A stretch of 64,000 bases of DNA from an uncultured Eubacteriales bacterium (GTDB taxonomy: Bacteria; Bacillota; Clostridia; Oscillospirales; Acutalibacteraceae): assembly GCA_934464615.1 (NCBI GenBank), contig CAKSKA010000001.1, positions 103,159-167,158 on the forward strand, written 5' to 3'. Positions 2,375-25,739 of this stretch are shown piece by piece; the stretch's first letter is position 1; each line of letters begins with the position of its first letter. The position numbers and the translations under genes are program-made. The notes beneath the pieces are model-generated. The model was not told the DNA's origin. It saw only the letters and a list, made by a program, of their open reading frames with translations, and did not search any database.

Positions 2375-3856
2375 ATGCGGGCAAACGGTATTTTAATGCC
2401 GATATTTTCATTGTCATCGGATTATCCGATAGGCACTATGGGAAAACCGGCTTACGAATTTATTGATTTTTTGGAAAAAGCAAAACAAACTTACTGGCAA
2501 ATATTGCCCGTAGGCCATACGGGATTCGGCGATTCGCCGTATCAGACGTTTTCGTGCTATGCGGGAAATCCTTATTTTATTGACCTTGAACTGCTTTATG
2601 ATAAAGGGTTGCTGACAAAAAAGGATTTAGAGGAAGAAAAAAGGTATTCGGAAGCGGACGGCGAAAATATAAATTACGGAAGACTGTATAAAACACGGTA
2701 TAAAACGCTTAAAAAAGCCTTCCGACTGTTTGAGGCGGACGAAAATTATACCGCGTTTTGCAATGAAAATGCGTATTGGCTTGAGCCTTACAGTATGTTT
2801 ATGGCGATAAAAGAGATACACGGCTCAAAAGGTATTGAAGATTGGGATATTGAGTATAAATTACGCGATTCCGCAGCGGTTGCGGCTGTGTCAGTACAAA
2901 GTGCCGAAAGTATTGAATTTTATAAATTTTTGCAATACGAATTTTTTGTGCAATGGCAGGCTATGCACGCCTATGCGGCGGCAGCCGGAATAAAAATAAT
3001 AGGCGATATGCCGATTTATGCCGCAGCCGACAGTGCGGATGTATGGAATGAGCCGGAGGTTTTTGCGGTTGATTCCCATATGACTCCCGTTTCGGTTGCG
3101 GGATGTCCGCCGGATGAATTTTCAAAAGACGGGCAACTGTGGGGAAATCCGCTTTACAATTGGGATAAAATGGCGCAAAATAATTTTGAATGGTGGAAGA
3201 GACGTTTAAGTCATAATTTTTCATTGTTTGATATTGTAAGAATAGACCATTTCAGAGGATTCGAATCTTACTACAGCATACCTTACGGTCTTACCGCGCG
3301 CAAAGGCAAGTGGGAAAAAGGTCCGTCCACGACGTTTTTTAACGAGATGAAACGGTGCTTCGGCAATGATATGCCTATAATAGCGGAAGATTTGGGATTT
3401 TTGACAGATGATGTAAGAAATCTGCTGAAAGAAACCGGATTTGCGGGTATGAAGGTGTTGCAGTTCGGCTTCGGCACAGGGCAGGACAGCGAATATCTGC
3501 CCCATAATTATACACGACACTGTGTTGTATATTTGGGTACCCACGATAACGACACCACCGCCGGATGGTTTAAGAATTTGAACGAGAGCGAAAAGGAAAA
3601 ACTGTTTTTGTACGCCGGCATTAAAAACGGTGACGATGTTGTGGAACGTATGATAGATCTTGCGATGGAAAGCGTTGCGGATATATGTATTTTAAGTATG
3701 CAGGATGTGCTGGGACTCGGCAGTCAGGCGCGCATTAATACGCCGTCTACGCTCGGGAATAACTGGCAATTTCGTATGAAAAAGCAAAATACGGACAGTA
3801 TAGCCGAAAGACTTGCCAAAAAAACGGAAGTATACGGCAGGGGCAAAATCGAATAG
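2375..3856 (+). CDS. malQ: 4-alpha-glucanotransferase (amylomaltase, GH77)
   Basis: GH77 motifs seen: GDMPIY, RIDHFRGF, IAEDLGF, GTHDNDT. Length 493 aa is typical for the family. Confidence 0.9.
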   Translation: MRANGILMPIFSLSSDYPIGTMGKPAYEFIDFLEKAKQTYWQILPVGHTGFGDSPYQTFSCYAGNPYFIDLELLYDKGLLTKKDLEEEKRYSEADGENINYGRLYKTRYKTLKKAFRLFEADENYTAFCNENAYWLEPYSMFMAIKEIHGSKGIEDWDIEYKLRDSAAVAAVSVQSAESIEFYKFLQYEFFVQWQAMHAYAAAAGIKIIGDMPIYAAADSADVWNEPEVFAVDSHMTPVSVAGCPPDEFSKDGQLWGNPLYNWDKMAQNNFEWWKRRLSHNFSLFDIVRIDHFRGFESYYSIPYGLTARKGKWEKGPSTTFFNEMKRCFGNDMPIIAEDLGFLTDDVRNLLKETGFAGMKVLQFGFGTGQDSEYLPHNYTRHCVVYLGTHDNDTTAGWFKNLNESEKEKLFLYAGIKNGDDVVERMIDLAMESVADICILSMQDVLGLGSQARINTPSTLGNNWQFRMKKQNTDSIAERLAKKTEVYGRGKIE

Positions 3857-4374: not shown

Positions 4375-5529
4375 TTAATCGTTAAAAAAGCTTTTAAGTT
4401 TATCCGCAAAGCTCTTTTTGTTTTTATAATTGCTGTCGGTTGTAATGCTGTCAAATTCCTTTAATTTTTCTTTTTGCGCTTTTGTAAGATTTTTAGGTAC
4501 TTCCACTTTCACCTTAACATATTGGTCTCCGCGGCCGGAGTAGCGCAGACGCTGTATGCCTTTGCCGCGCAGTTTAAATTCGTCACCGGACTGCGTTCCC
4601 TCATGTATAGTGAACTTTACCTTCCCGTCAAGCGTAGGTACCGTAATTTCAGCACCTAAGGCGGCTTGTGTAAATGTTATCGGAATTTCGCAGAATACAT
4701 CGTAACCCTCCCGTTCAAAAATCGGATGAGGTCTTACGTTTACATTGATATGCAAATCTCCCGACGGTCCGCCGTTTGTTCCGGCATCGCCGCCGCCGCG
4801 CAGGTTTATTACCTGTCCGTCGTCAATACCGGCAGGTATTTCGATTTCGCGGTCAAGCGTGTGGCGTATTTTGCCCTTGCCGGCGCAGGTGCGGCAGGGC
4901 TTATCAATTATTTTACCGGTACCGCGGCATTGCTCGCAGGGACGCTGTGTTTGTATTGAACCGAACGGTGTGCGCTGTACCGAGGATACGCTGCCCGTAC
5001 CGTGACAGGCAGGACACGTACGCGGAACAGAACCCTTTTCGGCGCCTGTGCCGTCACAATCCTTGCAGTTTTCAATACGCGTTATTTTTATTGTTTTTTT
5101 ACAGCCCTTTGCGGCCTCTTCAAAAGAAATTACGACGTTTGCGGCAGTATCGTTGCCACGCCGCGGCGCATTCGGATTTCTTCTTGCTCCGCCGCCGAAC
5201 ATACTGCCGAATATATCTCCCAAATCGCCGAAATCACCGAATCCGCCGAAACCGCCGCCGAATCCCGATCCGCCGGCGCCTCCGGCACCGAAGTTGGGAT
5301 CGACGCCTGCATGGCCGAATTGGTCGTAACGGGCGCGCTTTTCTTTATCGGACAAAACTTCGTACGCCTCGTTAACTTCTTTAAATTTCTTTTCGGCTTC
5401 GGCATCTCCCGGATTTAAATCCGGATGATATTTTTTTGCGGCTTTACGGTACGCTTTTTTTAATTCATCATCGCTGACGCTTTTATCAACGCCCAGCACT
5501 TCATAATAATCTCGTTTTTCTTCAGCCAA
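4375..5529 (-). CDS. dnaJ: Molecular chaperone DnaJ
   Basis: J-domain with HPD (KYHPDLNP), a G/F-rich linker, and four CxxCxGxG zinc-finger repeats. TTG start 6 nt after AGGAGAG. Confidence 0.97.
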
Positions 5530-12536: not shown

Positions 12537-13841
12537 ATGGACGCACTCAACAAAAAAACTATTGAGGATATTGATGTTGCAGGCAAAAAAGTTCTTGTAC
12601 GCTGCGATTTCAATGTTCCGATGAAAGACGGCAAAATCACAAGCGAAACACGCATTATCGGCGCGCTTCCGACAATTAAGTATTTGCTTGACCATAATGC
12701 AAAGGTAATCCTTTGCTCGCATATGGGTAAGCCGCACAGCATTTTTACCGAGGGCTTCGGTCTTTCCAAAAAGGAAAAGAAAGCTGTAGAAGCTTTGCCC
12801 GAAAACGAGAGAGCTGCCGCAACCGCAAAGTATCTTGAAAAAGCAGCTGCGGAAGACGCAAAGAAATTTACTTTAAAACCCGTTGCGGATAAACTTAACG
12901 AATATCTTGACGGCAAGGTTACATTTGCTTCCGATATAATAGGCGACGACGCAAAAGCTAAGGTTGCCGCTTTAACAGACGGCAAGGCGGTATTGCTTGA
13001 GAATGTACGCTTTGACGCAAGAGAAACCAAGAACGATCCCGAGTTTGCAAAAGCGCTCGCTTCCCTGGCTGATATATATGTAAACGACGCATTCGGCACC
13101 GCACATCGCGCACACGCTTCAACCACCGGCGTTGCAGATTATTTACCTGCAGTTTGCGGTTACCTTATCCAGAAAGAAATAACCGTTATGGGTAATGCGC
13201 TTGCAAATCCCGTGCGTCCTTTTGTTGCCGTACTCGGCGGTGCAAAGGTTTCGGATAAAATCGGCGTTATAGAAAACCTTATTGATAAGGTTGATACACT
13301 TATCATAGGCGGCGGTATGGCATATACGTTCTTCCGAGCACAAGGCTCTACAACAGGTACTTCGCTTTGCGAAGAAGATAAACTTGACTTGGCAAACAGC
13401 CTTATTGCAAAAGCAAGGGCAAAGGGCGTTAATTTCGTACTTCCCGTAGATAATATAGTAGGACGCGAGTATGATGAGAATACTGTAAATATGAGAATTT
13501 ATTCCGACTCCATTCCGGACGGCTGGATGGGACTTGACATAGGACCTGTTACACAGGAACTTTTCTCAAAGACCATTCAGGGTGCAGGCACTGTTATATG
13601 GAACGGACCGATGGGCGTTTCCGAATGGAAGAACTTTGCCGCGGGAACAGAAGCGGTAGCTAAAGCTGTTGCTGAATCGGGCGCTATTTCCATCATCGGC
13701 GGCGGCGATTCCGCTGCTGCGGTACAAAACCTCGGTTATGCCGACAAAATGACTCATATTTCAACAGGTGGCGGCGCTTCGCTTGAATTCCTTGAGGGTA
13801 AGGAACTTCCCGGTATAGCGGCGCTTAACGATAAGGATTAG
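12537..13841 (+). CDS. pgk: Phosphoglycerate kinase
   Basis: PGK motifs [30 protein letters not shown] and [14 protein letters not shown]. At 434 aa it is longer than usual because of an N-domain insertion (see findings). Confidence 0.97.
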
Positions 13842-13897
13842 TAAATTTAAAGGCTGACGAATTTTTCCGTCAGCCTTTTCGGATAGGAGATATTTAT

Positions 13898-14665
13898 ATG
13901 AATAAAGCTAAAAGAAAAACAGTTATTGCAGGTAACTGGAAAATGAACAACACACCGGCACAGACAACAGAGCTTATCAATGCTATGAAACCCCTTGTTA
14001 AAGACGCTGACTGCGACGTTGTACTTTGCGTACCGTTTGTTGATATTGCTGCCGCAACAAAAGCGGCTGAGAGCTCAAACATTAAAATCGGTGCCGAAAA
14101 TGTGCATTTTAAGGCATCGGGAGCATATACCGGCGAAGTTTCCGCCGAAATGCTTACCGCGTGCGGCGTTGAATATGTTGTAATCGGTCACAGCGAAAGA
14201 AGAACTTACTTCGGCGAGACCGACCAGACCGTTAATCTGCGTACTTTGGCTGCGCTTAACGCCGGACTTAAGGCAATTATTTGCGTAGGCGAAACATTAG
14301 AGCAGAGGGAACTCGGCTATACCGAAACTCTGCTTAAATTCCAGACAAAAATGGCGCTTACAAATGTTACGGGCGAGCAGCTTAAAAACGTAATTATAGC
14401 TTATGAGCCTGTTTGGGCAATAGGCACAGGCGTTACCGCTACGGCAGAACAGGCAGACGAAGGCAACGGATATGTACGTGCGGCAATTGCGGAAGTTTTC
14501 GGCAATGACGCTGCAGAATCCGTTACGGTACAGTACGGCGGTTCTATGAATGCTAAGAATGCGGAAGAACTGCTCGGCAAAACAAATGTTGACGGCGGAC
14601 TTATAGGCGGCGCATCTTTAAAGGCGGAAGATTTTTCCGTTATAGTTAAAGCCGCTTCAAAATAA
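13898..14665 (+). CDS. tpiA: Triosephosphate isomerase
   Basis: AGNWKMN, VIGHSERR and AYEPVWAIGTG motifs. Confidence 0.97.
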   Translation: MNKAKRKTVIAGNWKMNNTPAQTTELINAMKPLVKDADCDVVLCVPFVDIAAATKAAESSNIKIGAENVHFKASGAYTGEVSAEMLTACGVEYVVIGHSERRTYFGETDQTVNLRTLAALNAGLKAIICVGETLEQRELGYTETLLKFQTKMALTNVTGEQLKNVIIAYEPVWAIGTGVTATAEQADEGNGYVRAAIAEVFGNDAAESVTVQYGGSMNAKNAEELLGKTNVDGGLIGGASLKAEDFSVIVKAASK

Positions 14666-14671
14666 GAATGG

Positions 14672-16213
14672 GTGAAAAATATGAAAAAACCGGTTGTTTT
14701 AACAATTATGGACGGATTCGGTATAAATAAGGAGCATAAGGGCAATGCGATTTATGCTGCAAACACACCGCATCTTGACGAAATATTTAAGGATTGGCCT
14801 ACAACCCAGATAGGCGCTTCGGGCATGGACGTAGGTCTGCCCGACGGACAAATGGGTAACAGCGAAGTCGGACACACAAATATCGGTGCCGGCAGAGTTG
14901 TTTATCAGGAACTTACCCGTATTACAAAATCAATAAAGGACGGGGACTTCTTTAAAAACGAGGCGTTTTTAAAGGCAGTGGAAAACGTAAAGAAAACCGG
15001 CGGTGCGCTGCACCTTATGGGACTTCTCTCAAACGGCGGCGTACACAGCCATATTGAGCATATGTTTGCTTTGGTTGAACTTGCAAAACGCGAGGGAATT
15101 GAAAAAGTTTATATCCATGCTTTGCTTGACGGACGCGATGTTCCGCCGGCTTCCGCAGCGGATTTTATTGATGAAACAAATGCCGAATTAAAGGAAATCG
15201 GCATAGGAAAAATCGCTACCGTTATGGGCAGATTTTACGGTATGGACCGCGACAACCGTTGGGAACGCGTAGGCAAGGCGTATGCCGCACTTGTATACGG
15301 TGAGGGTATTACCACCGACGATGCCGCAGCAGCCGTAAGGAAATCATATACAGAGATTGACGCCGACGGCAAACATATAACCGACGAGTTTGTTCTGCCT
15401 ACCGTAGTAAACGGTACCGAAAGGATTAAATCGGGCGACAGCGTTATATTCTTCAATTTCCGTCCCGACAGAGCAAGGGAAATTACCCGCACATTTGTAG
15501 ATCCCGATTTTACGGGATTTGAAAGAAAAACAGGCAAACTTGACCTTTGCTATGTTTGTATGACGCAGTACGACGCTTCTATGCCGAATGTTGAAGTTGC
15601 CTTTAAACCGGAATCGCTTGATAACACATTGGGCGAGTATCTTGCTAAAAACGATATGACGCAACTGCGTATTGCCGAAACAGAAAAGTATGCGCATGTA
15701 ACCTTCTTTTTCAACGGCGGACGTGAGGTTGAATTTAAGGGTGAGGATAGAATTCTTGTTAATTCTCCGAAAGTTGCAACCTACGATTTACAGCCTGAGA
15801 TGAGCGCCGTTCCGGTTTGCGATAAGGTTTGCGATGCTATTGAAAGCGGCAAGTATGATGTTGTTATATTGAATTTTGCAAACTGCGATATGGTAGGACA
15901 CACAGGCGTGTTTGATGCGGCGGTAAAGGCTGTTGAAACGGTTGATACCTGCGTAGGACGCGTAAAGGATTCCACACTTAAAATGGGCGGTGTTATGTTG
16001 CTGACGGCAGACCACGGCAATGCAGACTGCATGGTAGCTCCGGACGGCTCTCCGTTTACGGCGCATACAACCAACCCCGTTCCGTTTGCCGTAATAGGCA
16101 GGCAGTGCAAACTGCGCAGCGACGGCAGACTCTGCGATATTTCACCTACAATATTAAAGCTGCTCGGCTTGCCGCAGCCCAAAGAAATGACGGGCATTTC
16201 TATAGTTGAATAG
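14672..16213 (+). CDS. gpmI: 2,3-bisphosphoglycerate-independent phosphoglycerate mutase
   Basis: iPGM motifs MDGFG, NSEVGHTNIGAGR, GGVHSH and ADHGNA. Length 513 aa. Confidence 0.97.
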   Translation: MKNMKKPVVLTIMDGFGINKEHKGNAIYAANTPHLDEIFKDWPTTQIGASGMDVGLPDGQMGNSEVGHTNIGAGRVVYQELTRITKSIKDGDFFKNEAFLKAVENVKKTGGALHLMGLLSNGGVHSHIEHMFALVELAKREGIEKVYIHALLDGRDVPPASAADFIDETNAELKEIGIGKIATVMGRFYGMDRDNRWERVGKAYAALVYGEGITTDDAAAAVRKSYTEIDADGKHITDEFVLPTVVNGTERIKSGDSVIFFNFRPDRAREITRTFVDPDFTGFERKTGKLDLCYVCMTQYDASMPNVEVAFKPESLDNTLGEYLAKNDMTQLRIAETEKYAHVTFFFNGGREVEFKGEDRILVNSPKVATYDLQPEMSAVPVCDKVCDAIESGKYDVVILNFANCDMVGHTGVFDAAVKAVETVDTCVGRVKDSTLKMGGVMLLTADHGNADCMVAPDGSPFTAHTTNPVPFAVIGRQCKLRSDGRLCDISPTILKLLGLPQPKEMTGISIVE

Positions 16214-16245: not shown

Positions 16246-16286
16246 AAATACGCCCCAAAAGTATAACACTTTTGGGGCGTATTTTT
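16246..16286. repeat. 41-bp direct repeat copy 1 = bidirectional terminator hairpin after gpmI
   Basis: AAATACGCCCCAAAAGTATAACACTTTTGGGGCGTATTTTT: a 14-bp stem with A/T-run flanks. Identical to 18112-18152. Confidence 0.9.
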
Positions 16287-16316
16287 ATCTGTACTTATCC
16301 TGACGAACAGTAAAAA

Positions 16317-16973
16317 TTATTTTTCAACAACATCTTTAACGATTTTGTCAAAATATTTGGATACTATGTGCAGACAAAATTCTTTCATCAAGGTCTCGTT
16401 TTCCTGCTTACTGCCATATATTTTGCCTGTTATCGGTGATTCCAATTCAACCATAAAATTCTGTAATATTGCCATAAAATCTTTTCCTGCAATAATATCC
16501 TTATATCGTTTAATGTACTGCACCAGTATGCCAAAGCGCTCGTGCGACAGTAAAGAATTTACTATTTCCAAAGTTTCTTTTGCATTGTTCATATTATATG
16601 GCAAAACATCTTTTTCAAAATCAAGCCCAAGTTTTTCACAATCATCTCTCATAAAGTTGCCTTTGCCTTGTGCTAATAATTGTAACCCCAGAAAATACTT
16701 TGTTGTGTTGTCGCTAAGTCCTAATTGATTTGCCGTCTTTTCGGCAATTTTGTCCTCGCGAATATCACTGTTCCCAATTAAGTAATCACAAGAAACTCCA
16801 AGATACTTTGCCATTTTCCCGGCAAGAATAATATCCGGATTGCGTTTTCCCAATACATAGAAGTTGATACTCTGCCGTGAACATTCAACAGCATCGGCAA
16901 ACGCACCTTGCGATATGCCTTTTTCAATTAGTAATTGTTCTAATCTTTTTCCGAAAATTTGTTGCGTCGGCAT
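16317..16973 (-). CDS. XRE-family transcriptional regulator (HTH_3 N-terminus, uncharacterised C-terminal domain)
   Basis: HTH region FGKRLEQLLIEKGISQGAFADAVECSRQSINFYVLGKRNPD. ATG 16973 is preferred because AAAGGGA lies 8 nt upstream. Confidence 0.8.
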   Translation of the reverse strand: MPTQQIFGKRLEQLLIEKGISQGAFADAVECSRQSINFYVLGKRNPDIILAGKMAKYLGVSCDYLIGNSDIREDKIAEKTANQLGLSDNTTKYFLGLQLLAQGKGNFMRDDCEKLGLDFEKDVLPYNMNNAKETLEIVNSLLSHERFGILVQYIKRYKDIIAGKDFMAILQNFMVELESPITGKIYGSKQENETLMKEFCLHIVSKYFDKIVKDVVEK

Positions 16974-16997
16974 GGGTATAGTCCCTTTCTGTATATA

Positions 16998-17028
16998 TTT
17001 GTAGCGTAACAATATTTTTTGCTACAAA
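16998..17028. promoter_or_regulatory. Inverted repeat, candidate operator for the XRE regulator
   Basis: TTTGTAGC-N15-GCTACAAA. It abuts the -35 of the + strand promoter and lies in the 5' UTR of the regulator gene. Confidence 0.4.
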
Positions 17029-17031
17029 CAG

Positions 17032-17060
17032 TTGACAAATAAATATCTGTAGCATATAAT
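17032..17060 (+). promoter_or_regulatory. Perfect consensus sigma-70 type promoter facing the toxin-immunity genes
   Basis: TTGACA (17032-17037), 17-nt spacer, TATAAT (17055-17060). Confidence 0.7.
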
Positions 17061-17062
17061 AT

Positions 17063-17091
17063 ATTATAGCAACAACAGTTGTCTGTGTCAA
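17063..17091 (-). promoter_or_regulatory. Perfect consensus sigma-70 type promoter facing the XRE regulator gene
   Basis: Minus strand: TTGACA (17091-17086), 17-nt spacer, TATAAT (17068-17063). Confidence 0.7.
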
Positions 17092-17155
17092 GTCTTGCAG
17101 ATTAAGTTTTGCACTTGTTAAAAAGATTATGATATAACGGGAAGAGGCAAACAAA

Positions 17156-17722
17156 TTGAGTTTAGAAACGGCCGTATTAGTTGCGGCGATAAACGGTGAC
17201 AAGTTAGCACCGAAACTATCAGAAAGTATTAATTATAAACATTGGCTTTCTATTGAGGATATGAGACGATGTTTGCCGTGTGCCGAAAATCATGGAAAAA
17301 TTTATCTAATGGAAGAAATAGCAGAACCTCGTACGCCTTTGCATCGTAACTGCCGTCGCTACCTTGAAAAAATGATAACGATAGACGCCGGAACAGCTAC
17401 GGTAAATGGCACCGAAGGGGCGGATTGGACATTAAAATATGACGGTAAATTGCCAAATTACTATGTTACAAAAAAATATGCAAACGAAAAAGGGTGGAAA
17501 GCAGGAAAATGGTTGTCCGATTTTGTACCCACCGTGATGATGACCGGTGGAATTTATAGGAATGACGATAAACACTTACCGCAAAAAAATGGTAGGATTT
17601 GGTATGAGGCAGACATTAACTATAAATCAGGAAAGCGAAACAAACAGCGTGTAGTATGGTCTAATGATGGCTTAATATTTGTCACATATGACCACTACAA
17701 AACATTTTATGAAATTGTATAA
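17156..17722 (+). CDS. Barnase-family ribonuclease toxin with an N-terminal phage MuF C-terminal-motif remnant
   Basis: The C-terminal ~95 aa align with barnase (KLPNYYVTKK...GRIWYEADINYKSGKRNKQRVVWSNDGLIFVTYDHYKTFYEI). Equivalents of K27, E73, R83, R87 and H102 are retained. The N-terminal WLSIEDMRRCLPCAENHGKIY...PLHRNCR resembles the end of the Phage_Mu_F domain. TTG start behind GAAGAGG. Confidence 0.85.
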   Translation: MSLETAVLVAAINGDKLAPKLSESINYKHWLSIEDMRRCLPCAENHGKIYLMEEIAEPRTPLHRNCRRYLEKMITIDAGTATVNGTEGADWTLKYDGKLPNYYVTKKYANEKGWKAGKWLSDFVPTVMMTGGIYRNDDKHLPQKNGRIWYEADINYKSGKRNKQRVVWSNDGLIFVTYDHYKTFYEIV

Positions 17723-17733
17723 AGGTGAAAAAT

Positions 17734-18018
17734 ATGAAAATCATTGAGTTGGATTTAACCGGATGCAGCTGCTTGTACGACATACATGAAAGAATTAAAA
17801 ATGCATTTGATTTCGACAATGAATATGGTCATAATTGGAGTGCTTTTTGGGATATGCTATGGAGCGAGTGCGACGCTGACAAAATAATAATCAAGGGTGA
17901 GAACACTTTACCAAGCGAACTCGATGAAACAATCGCAAAGCTTCATGAAATATTGGAAAGAAACAAAATTGAGCGAGCGACGTTTGATTGGCCGTTTGAT
18001 TATGAAATAATTTGTTAG
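17734..18018 (+). CDS. Barstar-family ribonuclease inhibitor (immunity protein)
   Basis: LYDIHERIKNAFDFDNEYGHNWSAFWDMLWS aligns with barstar [31 protein letters not shown]; W38 and D39 equivalents are kept. Starts 12 nt after the toxin stop. ATG 17734 lies behind AAAGGTG. Confidence 0.8.
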   Translation: MKIIELDLTGCSCLYDIHERIKNAFDFDNEYGHNWSAFWDMLWSECDADKIIIKGENTLPSELDETIAKLHEILERNKIERATFDWPFDYEIIC

Positions 18019-18111
18019 AAATAATAACAGACAAGATAAAAAGCTGTTGTATACTGATTGCATTGCTTTATCTGTTGCATAGCATAATTTTTTGTTTTGT
18101 CGTAAATAAAA

Positions 18112-18152
18112 AAATACGCCCCAAAAGTATAACACTTTTGGGGCGTATTTTT
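18112..18152. repeat. 41-bp direct repeat copy 2 = bidirectional terminator hairpin after kdgK
   Basis: Identical to 16246-16286. Lies 18 nt beyond the kdgK stop. Confidence 0.9.
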
Positions 18153-18169
18153 TATATTTTTGTGTTAAT

Positions 18170-19192
18170 TCAGCGTTGCACTCTGCCGGAGCCGTCGCCC
18201 TTTGCAAGTTTTTCAACTTCGCTTACGGTTACACGGTTAAAGTCACCCTCTACCGAATGTTTAAGGGCAGATGCCGCAACCGCAAATTCAATGGCATCGG
18301 CAGTGTTTTTACCGGAAAGCAGAGCATAAATAAGTCCGCCGCCGAAACTGTCGCCGCCGCCTACACGGTCGACAATATGCAGGTGATATTCTTTTGAGAA
18401 GCAGTAATCTTTGCCGTCGTAAAGCATACCGGCCCAATTATTGTCCGAAGCGGAAATAGACGTGCGCAATGTAATTGCAACCTTTTCAAAATTAAACTTT
18501 TCCGCCAACTGTTTGGCAACGGATTTATAACCTTCCTTATTTAATTTGCCGCCGTAAATATCTGTGTTTTCCGCCTCAATACCAAATACGTCTTTGGCGT
18601 CCTCTTCGTTGGAAATACAAACATCAACATATTTGCAAAGTTCGCTCATAGCGGCATTTGCTTCCTGTCTTGTCCACAATTTACCGCGGTAGTTTAAATC
18701 ACAGGAAATTTTAACACCGTGGTTTTTAGCGGCAATGCACGCCTGTTTGCATATTTCCACCATATTACCGCCGAGCGCGGGGGTTATTCCTGTAAAGTGG
18801 AACCAATCGGCACCGTCAAATATTTCATCCCAATTAAAATCTTCCGGAACGGCCTTTTGTATTGCTGAGCCTGCGCGGTCATAAATACATACGCTTCCGC
18901 GCTGAGAGGCGCCCTTTTCAAGGTAATATATACCAACCCTGTCGCCGCCGCGCGTAATGTGCGATGTATCTACACCGAAATACCTTAACGAATTTACAGC
19001 CGCCTGACCTATTGCGTGTTCCGGCAACTTTGTTACAAAGGAAGCGTCCATGCCGAAATTCGCAAGGGAAACCGCAACATTTGCTTCACCGCCGCCGAAT
19101 GTGGCTTGCAGTTGATCGTTTTGGAAAAACCTGTAGTATCCGTTTGGTGCCAAACGGAGCATTATTTCACCGAAAGTAACTATTTTAGCCAT
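18170..19192 (-). CDS. kdgK: 2-dehydro-3-deoxygluconokinase (PfkB family)
   Basis: PfkB signatures GGGEANVAVSL and DRVGGGDSFGGGLIYAL. ATG 19192 lies behind AAGGAG and overlaps the eda stop by 8 nt. Confidence 0.88.
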   Translation of the reverse strand: MAKIVTFGEIMLRLAPNGYYRFFQNDQLQATFGGGEANVAVSLANFGMDASFVTKLPEHAIGQAAVNSLRYFGVDTSHITRGGDRVGIYYLEKGASQRGSVCIYDRAGSAIQKAVPEDFNWDEIFDGADWFHFTGITPALGGNMVEICKQACIAAKNHGVKISCDLNYRGKLWTRQEANAAMSELCKYVDVCISNEEDAKDVFGIEAENTDIYGGKLNKEGYKSVAKQLAEKFNFEKVAITLRTSISASDNNWAGMLYDGKDYCFSKEYHLHIVDRVGGGDSFGGGLIYALLSGKNTADAIEFAVAASALKHSVEGDFNRVTVSEVEKLAKGDGSGRVQR

Positions 19193-19832
19193 TGTTTCTG
19201 CACTCCTTAACAATTTTTACCGATTTTTCGCACAAAGCGGTTATTTCATCAAATTTACCGTTATCAATTAAATCGGCTGTTACCATATAAGAGCCGCCGC
19301 AGGCACATATTACCGGACAGGATATATATTCCGCAAGATTTTTAAGCGAGATACCGCCTGTGGGCATTACTTTAAACATGGGGAACGGCGCACTCATGGC
19401 TTTGATCTTTGCAAGTCCGCCGGATTGTTCGGCAGGGAAGAACTTAAGCACCTTAAGTCCGAGTTTATATGCCGTGTGGTAATCCGTAGGAGTAGTGCAG
19501 CCGGGGAAAATATCAATATTCCTGCTTTGCGCGTACTTTACAAGTTCCGTATCAAGTCCCGGTGTTACAATAAATTTTGCACCGGCATTGATTGCTTGGT
19601 CAATCTGTTCTGTTGTAAGAACCGTTCCGGCACCTACAGCCATTTCGGGATGTGCCTTGCTCATAATTTCAATTGCTTTTGCCGCGCCTGCCGCACGGAA
19701 TGTAACTTCCGCCACGGGAACACCGCCTGCACACAACGCGTCTGCCAACGGCTTAGCGTCACGCTCGGGATTGTTCAGTTTAATTACCGGAACAACACCG
19801 ATTTCGGTTACTTTGTCTGCTATGTAACTCAT
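19185..19832 (-). CDS. eda: 2-dehydro-3-deoxyphosphogluconate (KDPG) aldolase
   Basis: KDPG/KHG aldolase family pattern (GVPVAEVTFR, GAGTVLT, LKFFPAEQSGG). Paired with kdgK. Confidence 0.88.
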   Translation of the reverse strand: MSYIADKVTEIGVVPVIKLNNPERDAKPLADALCAGGVPVAEVTFRAAGAAKAIEIMSKAHPEMAVGAGTVLTTEQIDQAINAGAKFIVTPGLDTELVKYAQSRNIDIFPGCTTPTDYHTAYKLGLKVLKFFPAEQSGGLAKIKAMSAPFPMFKVMPTGGISLKNLAEYISCPVICACGGSYMVTADLIDNGKFDEITALCEKSVKIVKECRNNG

Positions 19833-23213: not shown

Positions 23214-23349
23214 CAGTTATTCCTCCAATATAAAAAGTATAACGCGTATATTATACTATAAGTATTGAACAAAATCTACATTTTTGTTGAAATTAATTTT
23301 TAGAATGATATAATATAGGCAAAATTGGTTGAAATGAGGGAAGATTTAC

Positions 23350-25683
23350 ATGCGCGATATAATTTGTTTTGATAAGGGCTGGAGATTTCATAAAGGCAAT
23401 ATAGAATATCCCACACCGAATGCAAAAGGCATTATGTATTCACAGGCGAAAACAAAGCGGAAGGAATACGGACCGGCATCTGTAAATTATGACAGTGCAC
23501 CTGATTCTTACGATAAATCAAAGGGCATTAACCCTGACAGATGGGATAATGTGGATCTTCCGCATGATTATATGATAGAGTGTGTACCGAATGAAAACAA
23601 CAATAATGCTCTTGGTTACGTTAAATATGAAAATGCGTGGTATGTAAAGCGTTTTAATATTGATAAATCTGATGAGAGCAGACGCTTAAAGTTGTATTTC
23701 GAGGGCGTTGCGACTCATGCAACCGTGTATGTAAACGGTTGCCTTATGTGCCATAACTTTTGTGGATATACCTCTTTTGAAATAGATTTTACCAACATTG
23801 CACGCTTCGGGGGAGAAAATGTTGTGTCGGTATATGTTTCGACCGATGAAAAAGAGGGCTGGTGGTACGAAGGCGGTGGAATTTACAGACACGTTTGGCT
23901 GATAAAAACACATCCGGTGGCAGTTGACCTATACGGCGTTTACGCAAAAAACAAGTATAATGGTGACGGCAATTGGGAAACATTAGTAACAACTACCGTA
24001 CGTAATGATTTATTCGAAGATTTTTCGGGCAGGATTAAAACCGAACTTATTGACAAAAACGGAAATGTTATTTGTGAAAAATATGATAGTTTTTGTGTCG
24101 AACGTAAATTCAAAGTCGATATCAAACAACCTTTTAATGTTGAAAATCCGCAGCTCTGGGATATTGATGCTCCGAATATGTACAGCGTTAAAACAGTAAT
24201 TTATGATGCGAACGGCAATATTGAAGATGAAGTTACAACACCGTATGGATACAGGACAGTGGAATTTTCGTCAAAAGGATTTTTCCTTAACGGCAAAAAG
24301 CAAATAATAAAGGGTGTTTGTTGTCATCAGGATTACGGTATAACCGGCAAAGCCGTACCTGATAACATTCATCGCTATCGCATGCGGCTTATGAAAGAAA
24401 TGGGCGCAAATGCACTGCGTACATCGCACTACCCTAATGCTATTGCAACAATGGATGCCTGCGATAAGTACGGCGTTATGGTAATGAACGAAACCAGATG
24501 GTTTGAGTCTACAAAAGAGGGACTTGAACAACTTGAAATGCTTATAAAAAGAGATCGTAACAGACCTTGTGTTATTATGTGGAGCATAGGAAATGAAGAA
24601 CCTTTTTTTGCAACGGATGAAGGCAGACGCATTGCGGAGGATATGTATGCGTTTGCAAAACGGCTTGACGATACAAGACCTGTCATGGCAGCAATTTCCC
24701 ACACGCCGGCAAACGCAACAATAAACGGTATAAACGATGTTATAGGTGTTAACTACAATTTGCCGGACTATGACATTTTGCATGAAAAATTTCCGGATAA
24801 AGCCATTTTTGCGTCGGAATGTTGTGCTACGGGCACAACACGCGGTTGGTACTTACCCAATGACGATAAACACGGCAGAATTTACGGCTATGACAGGGAT
24901 ACAAATAATTGGTTCAGGGGTAGGGAAAATACATGGAAATTTTTAATGGAAAGAGATTTTATCTGCGGCGGATTTCAGTGGGCAGGTACGGAGCATAGGG
25001 GAGAAACCGTCTGGCCGAGACTTTGCTCTGCTTCGGGGGCATATGATTTGTTCTTGATAAAAAAGGATGCTTTTTATCAAAACCTTTCACACTGGACGGA
25101 CAGGCCGATGTTGCATATACTGCCGCATTGGAATATGTTCGGTTTTGAAGGTCAGGAAATTTTAGTTCAGGTGTACAATAATTGTGAGGAAATAGAGCTT
25201 TTTGTTAACGGCGAAAGCATGGGTACACAAAAGATGGAAAAATACAGCCGTGCTTCTTACAATGTTGTTTATAAACCGGGTGAAATTACCGCAATCGGTA
25301 GAATAGGCGGCAATGATGTTGCCGTACAAACAATTAAAACCACCGGTAAGGCAGTAAAACTTAAACTTGAACTGCAAAATGGGGATGATATTAAGGCAAA
25401 TGGCAACGATATTGCGGTTATACATTGCACCTGTCTTGATGAAAACGGACTTTTTGTTCCGGATGCGGATCCGTTTGTCAGCTTTACAACAAACGGACTC
25501 GGTATTGTGGTGGGTACGGGAAGCGATAATACCGACCATAATTTGCCGTCTTGTCCGGATAGAAAAATGTATGCCGGAGTAATAGCTGTTGCGGTAAAAC
25601 TCGGTACCGGAAGCGGCGTCTTAAGTGTTTATGCAAGTGCAGATTCGATGATACCTGCAAGGATAGATATTCCGATTAATTAA
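23350..25683 (+). CDS. Glycoside hydrolase family 2 (beta-galactosidase/beta-glucuronidase-like), cytoplasmic
   Basis: GH2 layout: N-terminal sugar-binding domain (FEGVATHATVYVNG), then a TIM barrel with NALRTSHYP and WSIGNEE. No signal peptide. Confidence 0.85.
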   Translation: MRDIICFDKGWRFHKGNIEYPTPNAKGIMYSQAKTKRKEYGPASVNYDSAPDSYDKSKGINPDRWDNVDLPHDYMIECVPNENNNNALGYVKYENAWYVKRFNIDKSDESRRLKLYFEGVATHATVYVNGCLMCHNFCGYTSFEIDFTNIARFGGENVVSVYVSTDEKEGWWYEGGGIYRHVWLIKTHPVAVDLYGVYAKNKYNGDGNWETLVTTTVRNDLFEDFSGRIKTELIDKNGNVICEKYDSFCVERKFKVDIKQPFNVENPQLWDIDAPNMYSVKTVIYDANGNIEDEVTTPYGYRTVEFSSKGFFLNGKKQIIKGVCCHQDYGITGKAVPDNIHRYRMRLMKEMGANALRTSHYPNAIATMDACDKYGVMVMNETRWFESTKEGLEQLEMLIKRDRNRPCVIMWSIGNEEPFFATDEGRRIAEDMYAFAKRLDDTRPVMAAISHTPANATINGINDVIGVNYNLPDYDILHEKFPDKAIFASECCATGTTRGWYLPNDDKHGRIYGYDRDTNNWFRGRENTWKFLMERDFICGGFQWAGTEHRGETVWPRLCSASGAYDLFLIKKDAFYQNLSHWTDRPMLHILPHWNMFGFEGQEILVQVYNNCEEIELFVNGESMGTQKMEKYSRASYNVVYKPGEITAIGRIGGNDVAVQTIKTTGKAVKLKLELQNGDDIKANGNDIAVIHCTCLDENGLFVPDADPFVSFTTNGLGIVVGTGSDNTDHNLPSCPDRKMYAGVIAVAVKLGTGSGVLSVYASADSMIPARIDIPIN

Positions 25684-25739
25684 ATGTAAAATATAAGCCG
25701 ACTGCAAAACTTTGCGGTCGGCTGACATTATTATTGTTA

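Follow-up and report, generated by a model that had tools for sequence, protein, structure and literature searches.

A three-gene toxin-immunity cassette without a recombinase gene between two copies of a putative terminator hairpin in an uncultured Clostridia bacterium

The islet, its flanking hairpins and the empty site

The DNA analysed here, referred to as the window, is a 64,000 bp stretch of the genome of an uncultured gut bacterium of the Eubacteriales (contig CAKSKA010000001.1, 103,159–167,158), and the element in question is an islet of 1,825 bp that lies between two exact copies (0 mismatches) of a 41-mer, AAATACGCCCCAAAAGTATAACACTTTTGGGGCGTATTTTT, at positions 16246–16286 and 18112–18152. 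Only three genes were found between the copies, encoding an XRE family repressor, a barnase-type toxin and a barstar family immunity protein. The XRE gene diverges from the toxin-immunity operon, in which the toxin gene is followed by the barstar gene, and the margins between the genes and the hairpins are 30 nt and 93 nt. Outside the copies lie two convergent core operons, pgk-tpiA-gpmI (12537–16213, + strand) and eda-kdgK (18170–19832, - strand). No integrase or transposase was called in the gene table within 10 kb on either side of the islet, and no terminal inverted repeats of the islet were found beyond the palindrome of the hairpin itself. An earlier note on this DNA had claimed the 41-mer at these two positions, the convergent core operons outside it, the three genes alone between the copies and no integrase, transposase or insertion sequence (IS) ends. 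All of this was borne out, the gene identities by agreement of Pfam with the genes tabulated for L001, a public contig of identical sequence (L-numbers are labels of the public contigs and loci compared with the window).

The repeat was found to be exactly 41 nt long, as the bordering bases of the two copies were unlike (left, G vs A; right, A vs T). Both copies form a perfect palindromic hairpin with a 17-bp stem, which the earlier note had undercounted at 14 bp, and a 5-nt loop; the stem can be extended through the A/T runs, and the 41 nt of the repeat comprise the 39-nt palindrome plus 2 nt. The fold energies of both copies on both strands were between -26.5 and -30.8 kcal/mol (z = -7.5 to -9.0), with values on the two strands of -27.1 and -26.5 kcal/mol for copy 1 (the left junction repeat, 16246–16286) and -29.8 and -30.8 kcal/mol for copy 2 (the right junction repeat, 18112–18152). 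As A and T runs flank the stem, the hairpin is plausibly a bidirectional intrinsic terminator, and the U-runs found 3′ of the stem on both strands agree with the termination in both directions that had been proposed for it. Copy 1 is predicted to terminate gpmI (+) and the XRE gene (-), and copy 2 the barstar gene (+) and kdgK (-).

A search of the window at up to three mismatches revealed no further copy of the 41-mer, except for the reverse-strand self-match of the palindrome, and no match was obtained in 100 dinucleotide-preserving shuffles (0/100). The 41-mer was found solely in contigs of the host species; it was present neither in the GTDB species representatives, among which the host species itself is apparently not included, nor in viral contigs. 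The inner stem with any 7-nt loop occurred at 39 loci in 38 genomes of the GTDB representatives, as a single copy per locus. These loci included Bacteroidota, had unrelated loops and flanks, and none was at the gpmI/kdgK locus or beside a cassette gene; the inner stem is a putative generic terminator stem. A multicopy palindrome of the repetitive extragenic palindromic (REP) or bacterial interspersed mosaic element (BIME) type, the possibility that the earlier note had set against its own reading, was rejected within the scope tested, with two copies in 64 kb and none in the GTDB representatives.

A weak outward promoter-like sequence, TTGCAT ... CATAAT, precedes hairpin copy 2 by about 25 nt (window 18058–18152). 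It could yield a short terminator-only transcript, and Rfam gave sub-threshold noise only in this region.

Strain alleles of the locus (L001 to L005) were gathered via contigs encoding the exact KdgK protein of the window, and further ones were added to them. Six alleles in all were filled. Over the 21 kb compared, the 272-kb contig L001 did not differ from the window (100% identity), L002 and L004 carried the same islet with ~99% identity to the window, and the further filled alleles were L147, L149 and L150. Two conspecific metagenome contigs with an identical KdgK and flanks that were ~99% identical, L003 and L005, carried an empty site. In both, the order was gpmI, a single hairpin and kdgK, with kdgK 90 nt after gpmI, and the hairpin was bordered on its left by exactly the sequence that precedes copy 1 and on its right by exactly that which follows copy 2. 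The single hairpin matched 40 of the 41 nt of the 41-mer, the sole change being a T>C in the loop; this loop C was private to the empty alleles and every filled copy had T. The locus is an insertion/empty-site polymorphism with a duplicated whole terminator as its junctions. A search for empty alleles had been proposed in the earlier note, and the single hairpin of L003 and L005, set between the outer flanks of the two copies, upholds the claim made there that a shared terminator was duplicated with the insertion of the cassette, as does the composition of the islet.

The GC content of the islet was 35.6%, compared to 44.3% and 42.9% in the 10-kb flanks, and the GC content at third codon positions (GC3) was 0.34–0.40 in the islet genes and 0.41–0.46 in the flanking genes. 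This comparison of GC and codon usage, also proposed earlier, agrees with a foreign origin of the islet. Single nucleotide polymorphisms (SNPs) in the flanks fell into three roughly equidistant, mosaic haplogroups without polarity; the islet is called inserted on account of its composition and of the scattered distribution of the cassette family described below. Divergence of the islet among the filled strains was ~0.6%, which was equal to that of the flanks, and the islet has therefore been inherited with its flanks for some time.

The claim that the two copies are identical held for the window strain and not for all others. Copy 2 of L147 had four substitutions relative to copy 1, made up of a compensatory C>T/G>A stem pair and two loop changes, and its right junction (~3030–3080 of L147) also had a 10-nt deletion, while two other changes were found in copy 2 of L149 and L150. 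The strain variation in the right hairpin copy and its immediate flank (equivalent to window 18112–18165) was far above the ~1% background. This suggests that a hairpin has been kept by selection, or else that a diverged copy was imported or took part in gene conversion.

The flanking genes are context and do not form part of the islet. They were assigned by Pfam as pgk (12537–13841, +; PGK), tpiA (13898–14665, +; TIM), gpmI (14681–16213, +; Metalloenzyme/iPGM_N), kdgK (18170–19192, -; PfkB) and eda (19185–19832, -; KDPG aldolase). The true start of kdgK is at 19192, and not at the TTG at 19213 that was given by the mechanical open reading frame (ORF) call.

Cassette proteins and the regulatory region

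The toxin gene (17156–17722, + strand) encodes a protein of 188 amino acids with a barnase RNase domain at residues ~81–187. PF00545 matched it with 39.7 bits against a cut-off of 24 bits, and the profile of the toxin family aligned to residues 2–109 of the 110 residues of barnase in the PDB (E = 1.8e-30). An AlphaFold2 model of the toxin had a pLDDT of 90.9, and Foldseek aligned it to barnase with an rmsd of 1.5 A, a TM(target) of 0.85 and 44–48% identity. The motifs WYEADINY and YDHY were conserved in the toxin family, and the motifs that hold what we take to be the equivalents of the barnase catalytic residues Glu73 and His102 were matched in the toxin alignment.

The first ~80 residues of the toxin are extra relative to barnase, and residues ~20–70 contain a CxxC...HxxCxC motif. 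The matches of this N-terminal domain were to phage head-morphogenesis proteins of the MuF type. They were weak against the PHROG head-morphogenesis (MuF/SPP1 gp7) families (E = 2e-4 to 8e-3) and reached 21 bits against TIGR01641, below the cut-off of 39.65, and in a structure search MuF and minor capsid proteins were matched over only ~50 residues. A homologue of the toxin at locus L088 reached 33.4 bits against a cut-off of 29.6 in the MuF test (PF04233 / TIGR01641). Only the C-terminal core of MuF is present in the window toxin, which, on these alignments and the model, is predicted to join a minimal phage MuF core to barnase in one compact protein. The barnase family assignment in the earlier note was confirmed as far as the C-terminal domain is concerned; the protein is not a plain barnase.

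The barstar family immunity gene (17734–18018, + strand) begins 11 nt past the toxin stop codon, encodes 94 amino acids and ends in ..GTCGTAAATAAAAA. Its match to PF01337 (E = 1.2e-12; 48.1 bits against a cut-off of 23.4) covered profile positions 1–82 of 96, and it was called as a 94-amino acid Barstar product in the identical contig L001. The family and the position directly after the toxin are as previously noted, and the immunity role is predicted. Like barnase of Bacillus amyloliquefaciens, the toxin has a C-terminal domain that aligns to the whole of barnase and adjoins a PF01337 barstar gene; unlike barnase, it has an added MuF-core domain, and toxin and inhibitor appear to share a transcript controlled by a divergently encoded repressor. 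By eye, the toxin showed no signal peptide. Because of this, of the added MuF core and of the shared, repressor-controlled transcript, the toxin probably stays inside the cell or reaches its target by another route, rather than being a secreted nuclease.

The XRE/HTH_3 repressor gene (16317–16973, - strand) encodes 218 amino acids, and its 3′-end is ATCTGTACTTATCC.. The helix-turn-helix (HTH) at residues ~8–66 matched PF01381 (E = 9e-12), and the gene also matched PHROG transcriptional repressor families; the exact 218-amino acid protein is on record. Its match to the PDB was confined to the HTH region, and the C-terminal ~150 amino acids had no family assignment. The toxin gene, the adjacent barstar gene and the dedicated repressor gene make the cassette a candidate type II toxin-antitoxin module, in which loss of the inhibitor would arrest growth. 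PADLOC defence models matched the HTH alone and neither the toxin nor the barstar protein, and the cassette was not taken for a known defence system.

The region between the divergent genes (17000–17091) contained operator-like inverted repeats and two overlapping sigma-70 consensus promoters. One inverted repeat is formed by TGTAGC at 17000–17005 with GCTACA at 17021–26, and a second, TGTAGC..GCAACA, spans the -10 boxes. The promoter toward the toxin (17032–17060, +) and that toward the XRE gene (17091–17063, -) each had 12 of 12 sigma-70 consensus positions, and they overlap face to face. This region looks like a repressor-controlled either/or switch. Its promoter and operator architecture was kept in the distant relatives L051, L137 and L055. 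A proximal toxin promoter, P2, was predicted from the sequence at 17109–17138 (+), with TTGCAC, an 18-nt spacer and TG-n-TATAAC. The equivalent of P2 was TGATATAAT in the alleles L002 and L147 and in the relatives L137 and L055, and TGTTATAAT in L051.

The cassette is decaying in this species, by different lesions in different strains. In the window strain, the final T of the P2 -10 box is mutated to C (TATAAT>TATAAC, 17133–17138), and Cys68 of the toxin, which was conserved in >90% of the family, is replaced (C68R, 17357–17359). A 47-nt stretch (~17027–17073) that holds the overlapping promoters was deleted in L002, L004 and L147. The toxin of L147 was intact, and L002 and L004 had, in addition to the deletion, a stop at W149 (17600–17602).

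MuF toxins were described by Jamet et al. in 2017 as full-length head-morphogenesis proteins in prophage packaging modules (PMC5576092), in a paper in which the word 'barnase' does not occur. The window toxin resembles them in its N-terminal MuF-type module, its C-terminal toxin domain and the small immunity gene that follows, and it shares their enrichment in Firmicutes. It differs in that only a ~50-residue core of MuF is left in a protein of 188 amino acids, that it is chromosomal and outside a prophage, that it has its own XRE switch and that it has no relatives in the phage collections. Its neighbours are glycolysis and 2-keto-3-deoxygluconate (KDG) genes and not a prophage packaging module. 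We regard it as a probable new variant of the MuF toxins, reduced to a minimum and located outside prophages. On this reading the polymorphic MuF toxins would come to include a minimal form that is chromosomal, lies outside prophages and is controlled by a repressor, which raises the question of what role the MuF core has outside the phage. In the literature covered, which did not include the 2012 polymorphic-toxin survey (PMC3482391), no paper was found that joins barnase and barstar to a MuF module in a compact cassette form.

Relatives of the cassette in other Clostridia

The toxin was found to belong to a family of >2000 proteins. Among the members listed, from which length and annotation were taken, nearly all were ~188 amino acids long and most were annotated with PF04233 and PF00545; the PF04233 hits were precomputed and several were flagged as weak in the gene tables. 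Since a family of ~188 amino acids with PF04233 and PF00545 is conserved, the minimal MuF/barnase protein is a real architecture and not a fragment. Homologous cassettes, consisting of the toxin and barstar genes with or without an XRE gene, were found in metagenome-assembled genomes of Clostridia, at many chromosomal sites that are unrelated to one another and lie among housekeeping genes, and were often beside the 3′-ends of tRNA or other genes. No recombinase genes were found near the family cassettes in the gene tables checked or among the neighbouring ORFs scanned against Pfam. Additionally, no relative of the toxin was found in IMG/VR or in the 50,697 phage records of INPHARED, and plasmids yielded no full-length match to the toxin, only the barnase domain.

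A scripted search was made for pairs of direct repeats that enclose the toxin gene. In about a dozen independent contexts, direct repeats of 32–210 nt were found that were made of the adjoining host sequence. As a control, none of 70 decoy positions in the window (0/70) had a short repeat of at least 85% identity. At L051 the repeat was 73 nt, of which 72 were identical, and consisted of the last 54 nt of spoVAD and 19 nt downstream; a second filled/empty pair at spoVAD was not found for the L051 species, the only other contig (L148) being also filled. The repeat at L067 (57/57 nt) was the 3′ part of tRNA-Ala(GGC), and one of 64–72 nt at L086 derived from the same tRNA type in an unrelated context. 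A gene end was repeated at L117 (32/32 nt). The repeats at L133 (51 nt, 50 identical, cut short by the contig end) and L134 (134 nt, 133 identical) included a tRNA-like 3′-end and hairpins. Repeats downstream of tRNA genes were found at L102 (151–210 nt, tRNA-Asn) and at L114 (44 nt, tRNA-Leu), the latter with tandem cassettes. Several more diverged cases were also found. The family as a whole shows a pattern of flanking repeats without recombinase genes in cis.

Cassettes with an identical toxin, P0011, were found in two unrelated contexts, L137 and L138. An alignment of the two revealed a common 2.09-kb block (L137:3920–6056 and L138:3959–6048) with 97% identity, which holds the whole of the right repeat and part of the left repeat. 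Both repeats here reproduce the 5′ part of an abrB/mazE-like gene, and Fic/Doc genes adjoin; this arrangement suggests that a cassette may have moved between the starts of paralogous antitoxin genes. The tRNA-Ala repeats of L067 and L086 begin at the same position of the tRNA and are preceded by a similar non-tRNA sequence of ~20 nt. At spoVAC, in L142 and L059, successive immunity and toxin cassettes are separated by 3′ fragments of spoVAC that are 70–85% alike, each fused at the same point to a conserved promoter module of ~90 nt. These three cases, together with the divergence of copy 2 in L147, suggest that the flanking repeat may be able to travel with the cassette.

The array at the 3′-end of spoVAC in L142 (3300–7815) encodes, in this order, an orphan barstar, a DMP19-like protein, a toxin with barstar, DUF5071 and a 162-amino acid ORF. 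Each of the last three units is followed by a partial, and finally by the full, 3′-end of spoVAC with the promoter module of ~90 nt, which includes a ribosome-binding site. Weaker copies of the spoVAC-end and promoter elements were seen upstream, at ~3660–3800 and 4800–4845. The layout is integron-like or AID-like, and no recombinase was visible in it.

Mode of insertion and comparison with known mobile units

The islet is best read as a three-gene cassette, devoid of a recombinase gene, that would have entered the single bidirectional terminator common to the gpmI and kdgK operons, the two 41-bp hairpins being the junction repeats of this entry. Under our preferred explanation, to which we assign a probability of roughly 45%, the cassette entered by a single crossover between a cassette unit with host-like sequence and the matching sequence of the chromosome. 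The cassette would exist or travel as a unit carrying one copy of the host-like sequence. Were this unit a circle, a single bidirectional terminator would serve both the XRE and the barstar gene, whose 3′-ends converge, and the circle junction would read from the barstar 3′-end, ..GTCGTAAATAAAAA, through one hairpin into the XRE 3′-end, ATCTGTACTTATCC.. Integration would be a single reciprocal crossover with the matching chromosomal hairpin, carried out by a recombinase from trans or by host homologous recombination. The outcome would be direct repeats resembling attL and attR, with all four transcription units still terminated, and the empty site would be restored if the two repeats recombined. 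Once integrated, the cassette would behave as a repressor-controlled toxin-immunity module, of the addiction or conflict kind, that is eroding in this species. That there is a circle, that it enters by a single crossover and that the recombinase comes from one of these sources is what we infer, and not what was observed. The earlier note had left the mechanism of insertion unexplained; this stands in so far as no mobility genes were found in cis, and it is amended by a published precedent for long target duplication (PMC2853133) and by the clues from the family.

Several points weigh against a single crossover. No recombinase, circle or excision junction was observed, and the cassette-bearing contigs had no circular signature (terminal overlap). 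About as many cassette contexts lacked a repeat as had one, an example being L088, between a dacA-like gene and queH, and no flanking repeats were found in the relatives with long flanks at L088 (a cluster of 33 loci), L066 and L131. The SNPs of the flanks, as their haplogroups are equidistant, were uninformative when used to polarise gain vs loss. A homology of 41 bp is close to the shortest on which RecA-type recombination can act. The loop T in all filled copies vs the C in the empty allele gives no signature of a hybrid site, and the model leaves unexplained how the cassette first acquired a copy of a new target. Finally, the copies in the window are 100% identical and the repeat boundaries are within 2 nt of the palindrome, which fits a structure-directed duplication in situ better than arbitrary homology.

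Such a duplication in situ would be a long target-site duplication, in which the palindromic terminator is extruded as a hairpin or cruciform and cut at its base on both strands, the cassette is joined and fill-in duplicates the hairpin. The cutter would be a junction-resolving or transposase-like enzyme acting in trans, and the cut would effectively be a staggered break of 39–41 nt. We hold this to be unlikely, though a serious candidate, given that the copies are identical, that the repeat is a 39-nt palindrome plus 2 nt and that exactly one copy is present at the empty site. Long target duplication (46–423 bp) is also documented for restriction-modification (R-M) modules (PMC2853133), and IS1630 is reported to target and duplicate inverted repeats (as cited in PMC2853133), with duplications of 16–26 bp at its junctions (PMC3317919). 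Set against it are the repeats of the relatives, none of them palindromic (the end of spoVAD, the 3′ part of a tRNA and the 5′ part of an abrB-like gene), several of which seem to travel with the cassette or are only 70–87% alike. Additionally, a transposase would find no terminal inverted repeats to bind, and the analysis did not turn up a candidate enzyme.

In length the flanking direct repeats resemble att sites, an association with tRNA 3′-ends is seen among relatives and the N-terminal domain of the toxin appears to be of phage (MuF) origin, all of which would also suit a remnant of a larger integrase-bearing element or prophage at the hairpin, the rest of which was deleted while the addictive pair was kept. 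The element could have been an integrative and conjugative element (ICE) or an integrative and mobilizable element (IME), and the remnant would be a strict cis-mobilizable element (CIME); CIMEs are described as decayed elements that keep attL and attR (PMC5704250). We consider this distinctly improbable, as the margins of 30 and 93 nt are tight and the cassettes are equally compact at many independent sites, unlike the result of repeated random deletions. No family member was found in IMG/VR or the 50,697 phage records and no full-length match on plasmids, no intact element was seen at any of these sites, and the hairpin and att-like patterns were absent from viral contigs. Less probable still is that the cassette is ancestral here, the empty alleles having arisen by deletion between the hairpins and the duplication being an old local event rather than a horizontal insertion. 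Recombination or slippage between the 41-bp repeats would yield exactly the empty allele, the three equidistant haplogroups of the flanks have no polarity and the ~0.6% divergence of the islet between strains matches that of the flanks. Deletion accounts for the loss of the islet, however, and not for the origin of the arrangement; the GC content of the islet is 8 points below that of the flanks, homologous cassettes are found at unrelated sites in other taxa, and the loop C is private to the empty alleles and in no filled copy.

Other candidates were rejected. An IS or composite transposon was set aside as there was no transposase and no terminal inverted repeats, and the duplication, rather than being short and of fixed length, was 41 bp here and 32–210 nt in relatives. 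An integron cassette with attC would have an IntI, of which none was nearby, and the hairpin is a perfect 17-bp palindrome and not an imperfect attC. Nothing in or near the islet reached the Rfam gathering score for a group II intron or another structured RNA. Cargo of a prophage or plasmid was discarded, with no toxin relative in IMG/VR or INPHARED and the barnase domain only on plasmids. Neither a phage attP carrying the hairpin nor one carrying the tRNA-Ala arm and repeat was matched in viral contigs.

Insertion with long target duplication of R-M gene complexes was reportedly described by Nobusato et al. in 2000 (Gene 259:99). Furuta et al. (2010) documented insertions of this kind, with duplications of 46–423 bp, for R-M modules without mobility genes (PMC2853133). 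The duplications often span gene 3′-ends, the inserts are low in GC and the mechanism was left unresolved (PMC2853133). In that study the repeat was to be longer than 30 bp and aligned to a single copy at the empty site; the repeat here is 41/41 between the copies and 40/41 in L003 and L005. The insert was to be shorter than 20 kb and without mobility genes, and the islet, 1,825 bp long, has three genes, none of them for a recombinase. The repeat was also to occur nowhere else in the genome, and the 41-mer repeat is unique within the 64-kb window. The islet is like the R-M cases in being a small and selfish unit of the addiction type without a transposase or integrase, with deviant GC, repeats of >30 bp and an empty site, in a family in which the repeats often cover gene 3′-ends, and in that the mechanism is unsolved. 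It is unlike them in its cargo of an RNase toxin, an immunity protein and a repressor, and in its host, an uncultured Clostridia lineage of a different phylum. Without an R-M pair, the cargo here lacks the DNA-breaking activity by which the insertion of R-M modules has been proposed to be driven. Further differences are that the duplicated target here is precisely the whole of a palindromic terminator, and that the repeat appears to travel with the cassette in relatives.

CIMEs and tandem accretion at the 3′-ends of tRNA and housekeeping genes in Firmicutes have been reviewed (PMC5704250). The cassette resembles CIMEs in its lack of integration and transfer genes, in its direct repeats similar to attL and attR, in the position of relatives at tRNA and gene 3′-ends and in the occasional tandem arrays of relatives (L142, L114 and L086). 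CIMEs, however, are decay products of ICEs and IMEs that share att with an integrase-bearing element, and none was found for the cassette: no such element was seen at the window site or at the related sites examined, and viral contigs gave no attP-like match. The cassette is also, unlike CIMEs, uniformly minimal (2–3 genes) at many different sites. IS1630, of the IS30 family in Mycoplasma fermentans, is described as having a transposase, 27-bp terminal inverted repeats and duplications of 16–26 bp (PMC3317919). IS1630, as reported, and the islet both have an entire palindromic, terminator-like target of variable sequence duplicated. The islet differs in having no transposase or inverted repeats and in its duplication of 41 bp.

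The locus is a gene insertion without a recombinase of a rarely documented kind, which is interesting and not unprecedented, and as a single locus it is not very surprising to a specialist in mobile DNA. Units without a recombinase that have long, variable target duplications have been known since 2000, and their mechanism was never explained. Here a filled and an empty site make a clean pair, and what was duplicated is one bidirectional terminator, no more and no less; the insertion is therefore expected to be transcriptionally silent for both neighbouring core operons. With >2000 compact cassettes and many independent insertions, the sample may suffice to derive the rules of insertion computationally, and the family could make the old question of long target duplication tractable. 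More speculatively, and in our estimate a long shot, cassettes of the mini-MuF/barnase-barstar type could be widespread, unrecognised mobile units of gut Clostridia, without a recombinase, that insert at the structures of RNA 3′-ends (terminator hairpins, tRNA 3′ halves and gene ends) by a dedicated target-duplicating mechanism. This would be either structure-specific cleavage or piracy of host or phage recombinases via portable att mimics. The MuF core would then load the RNase into the capsids of infecting or resident phages, making the chromosomal cassette a phage-borne weapon or an anti-phage Trojan horse.

Two minor observations were made elsewhere in the window. A gene encoding a glycoside hydrolase family 2 protein of 777 amino acids (~23243–25691) is missing in L003, which has ~108 nt of unrelated sequence instead; this is a second strain-specific indel of the same neighbourhood. 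Downstream of proS, seven tandem paralogous ORFs of 476–515 amino acids were found between 47592 and 58543 (- strand). Adjacent copies shared 67–80% nucleotide identity, and the three that were tested had no Pfam hit.

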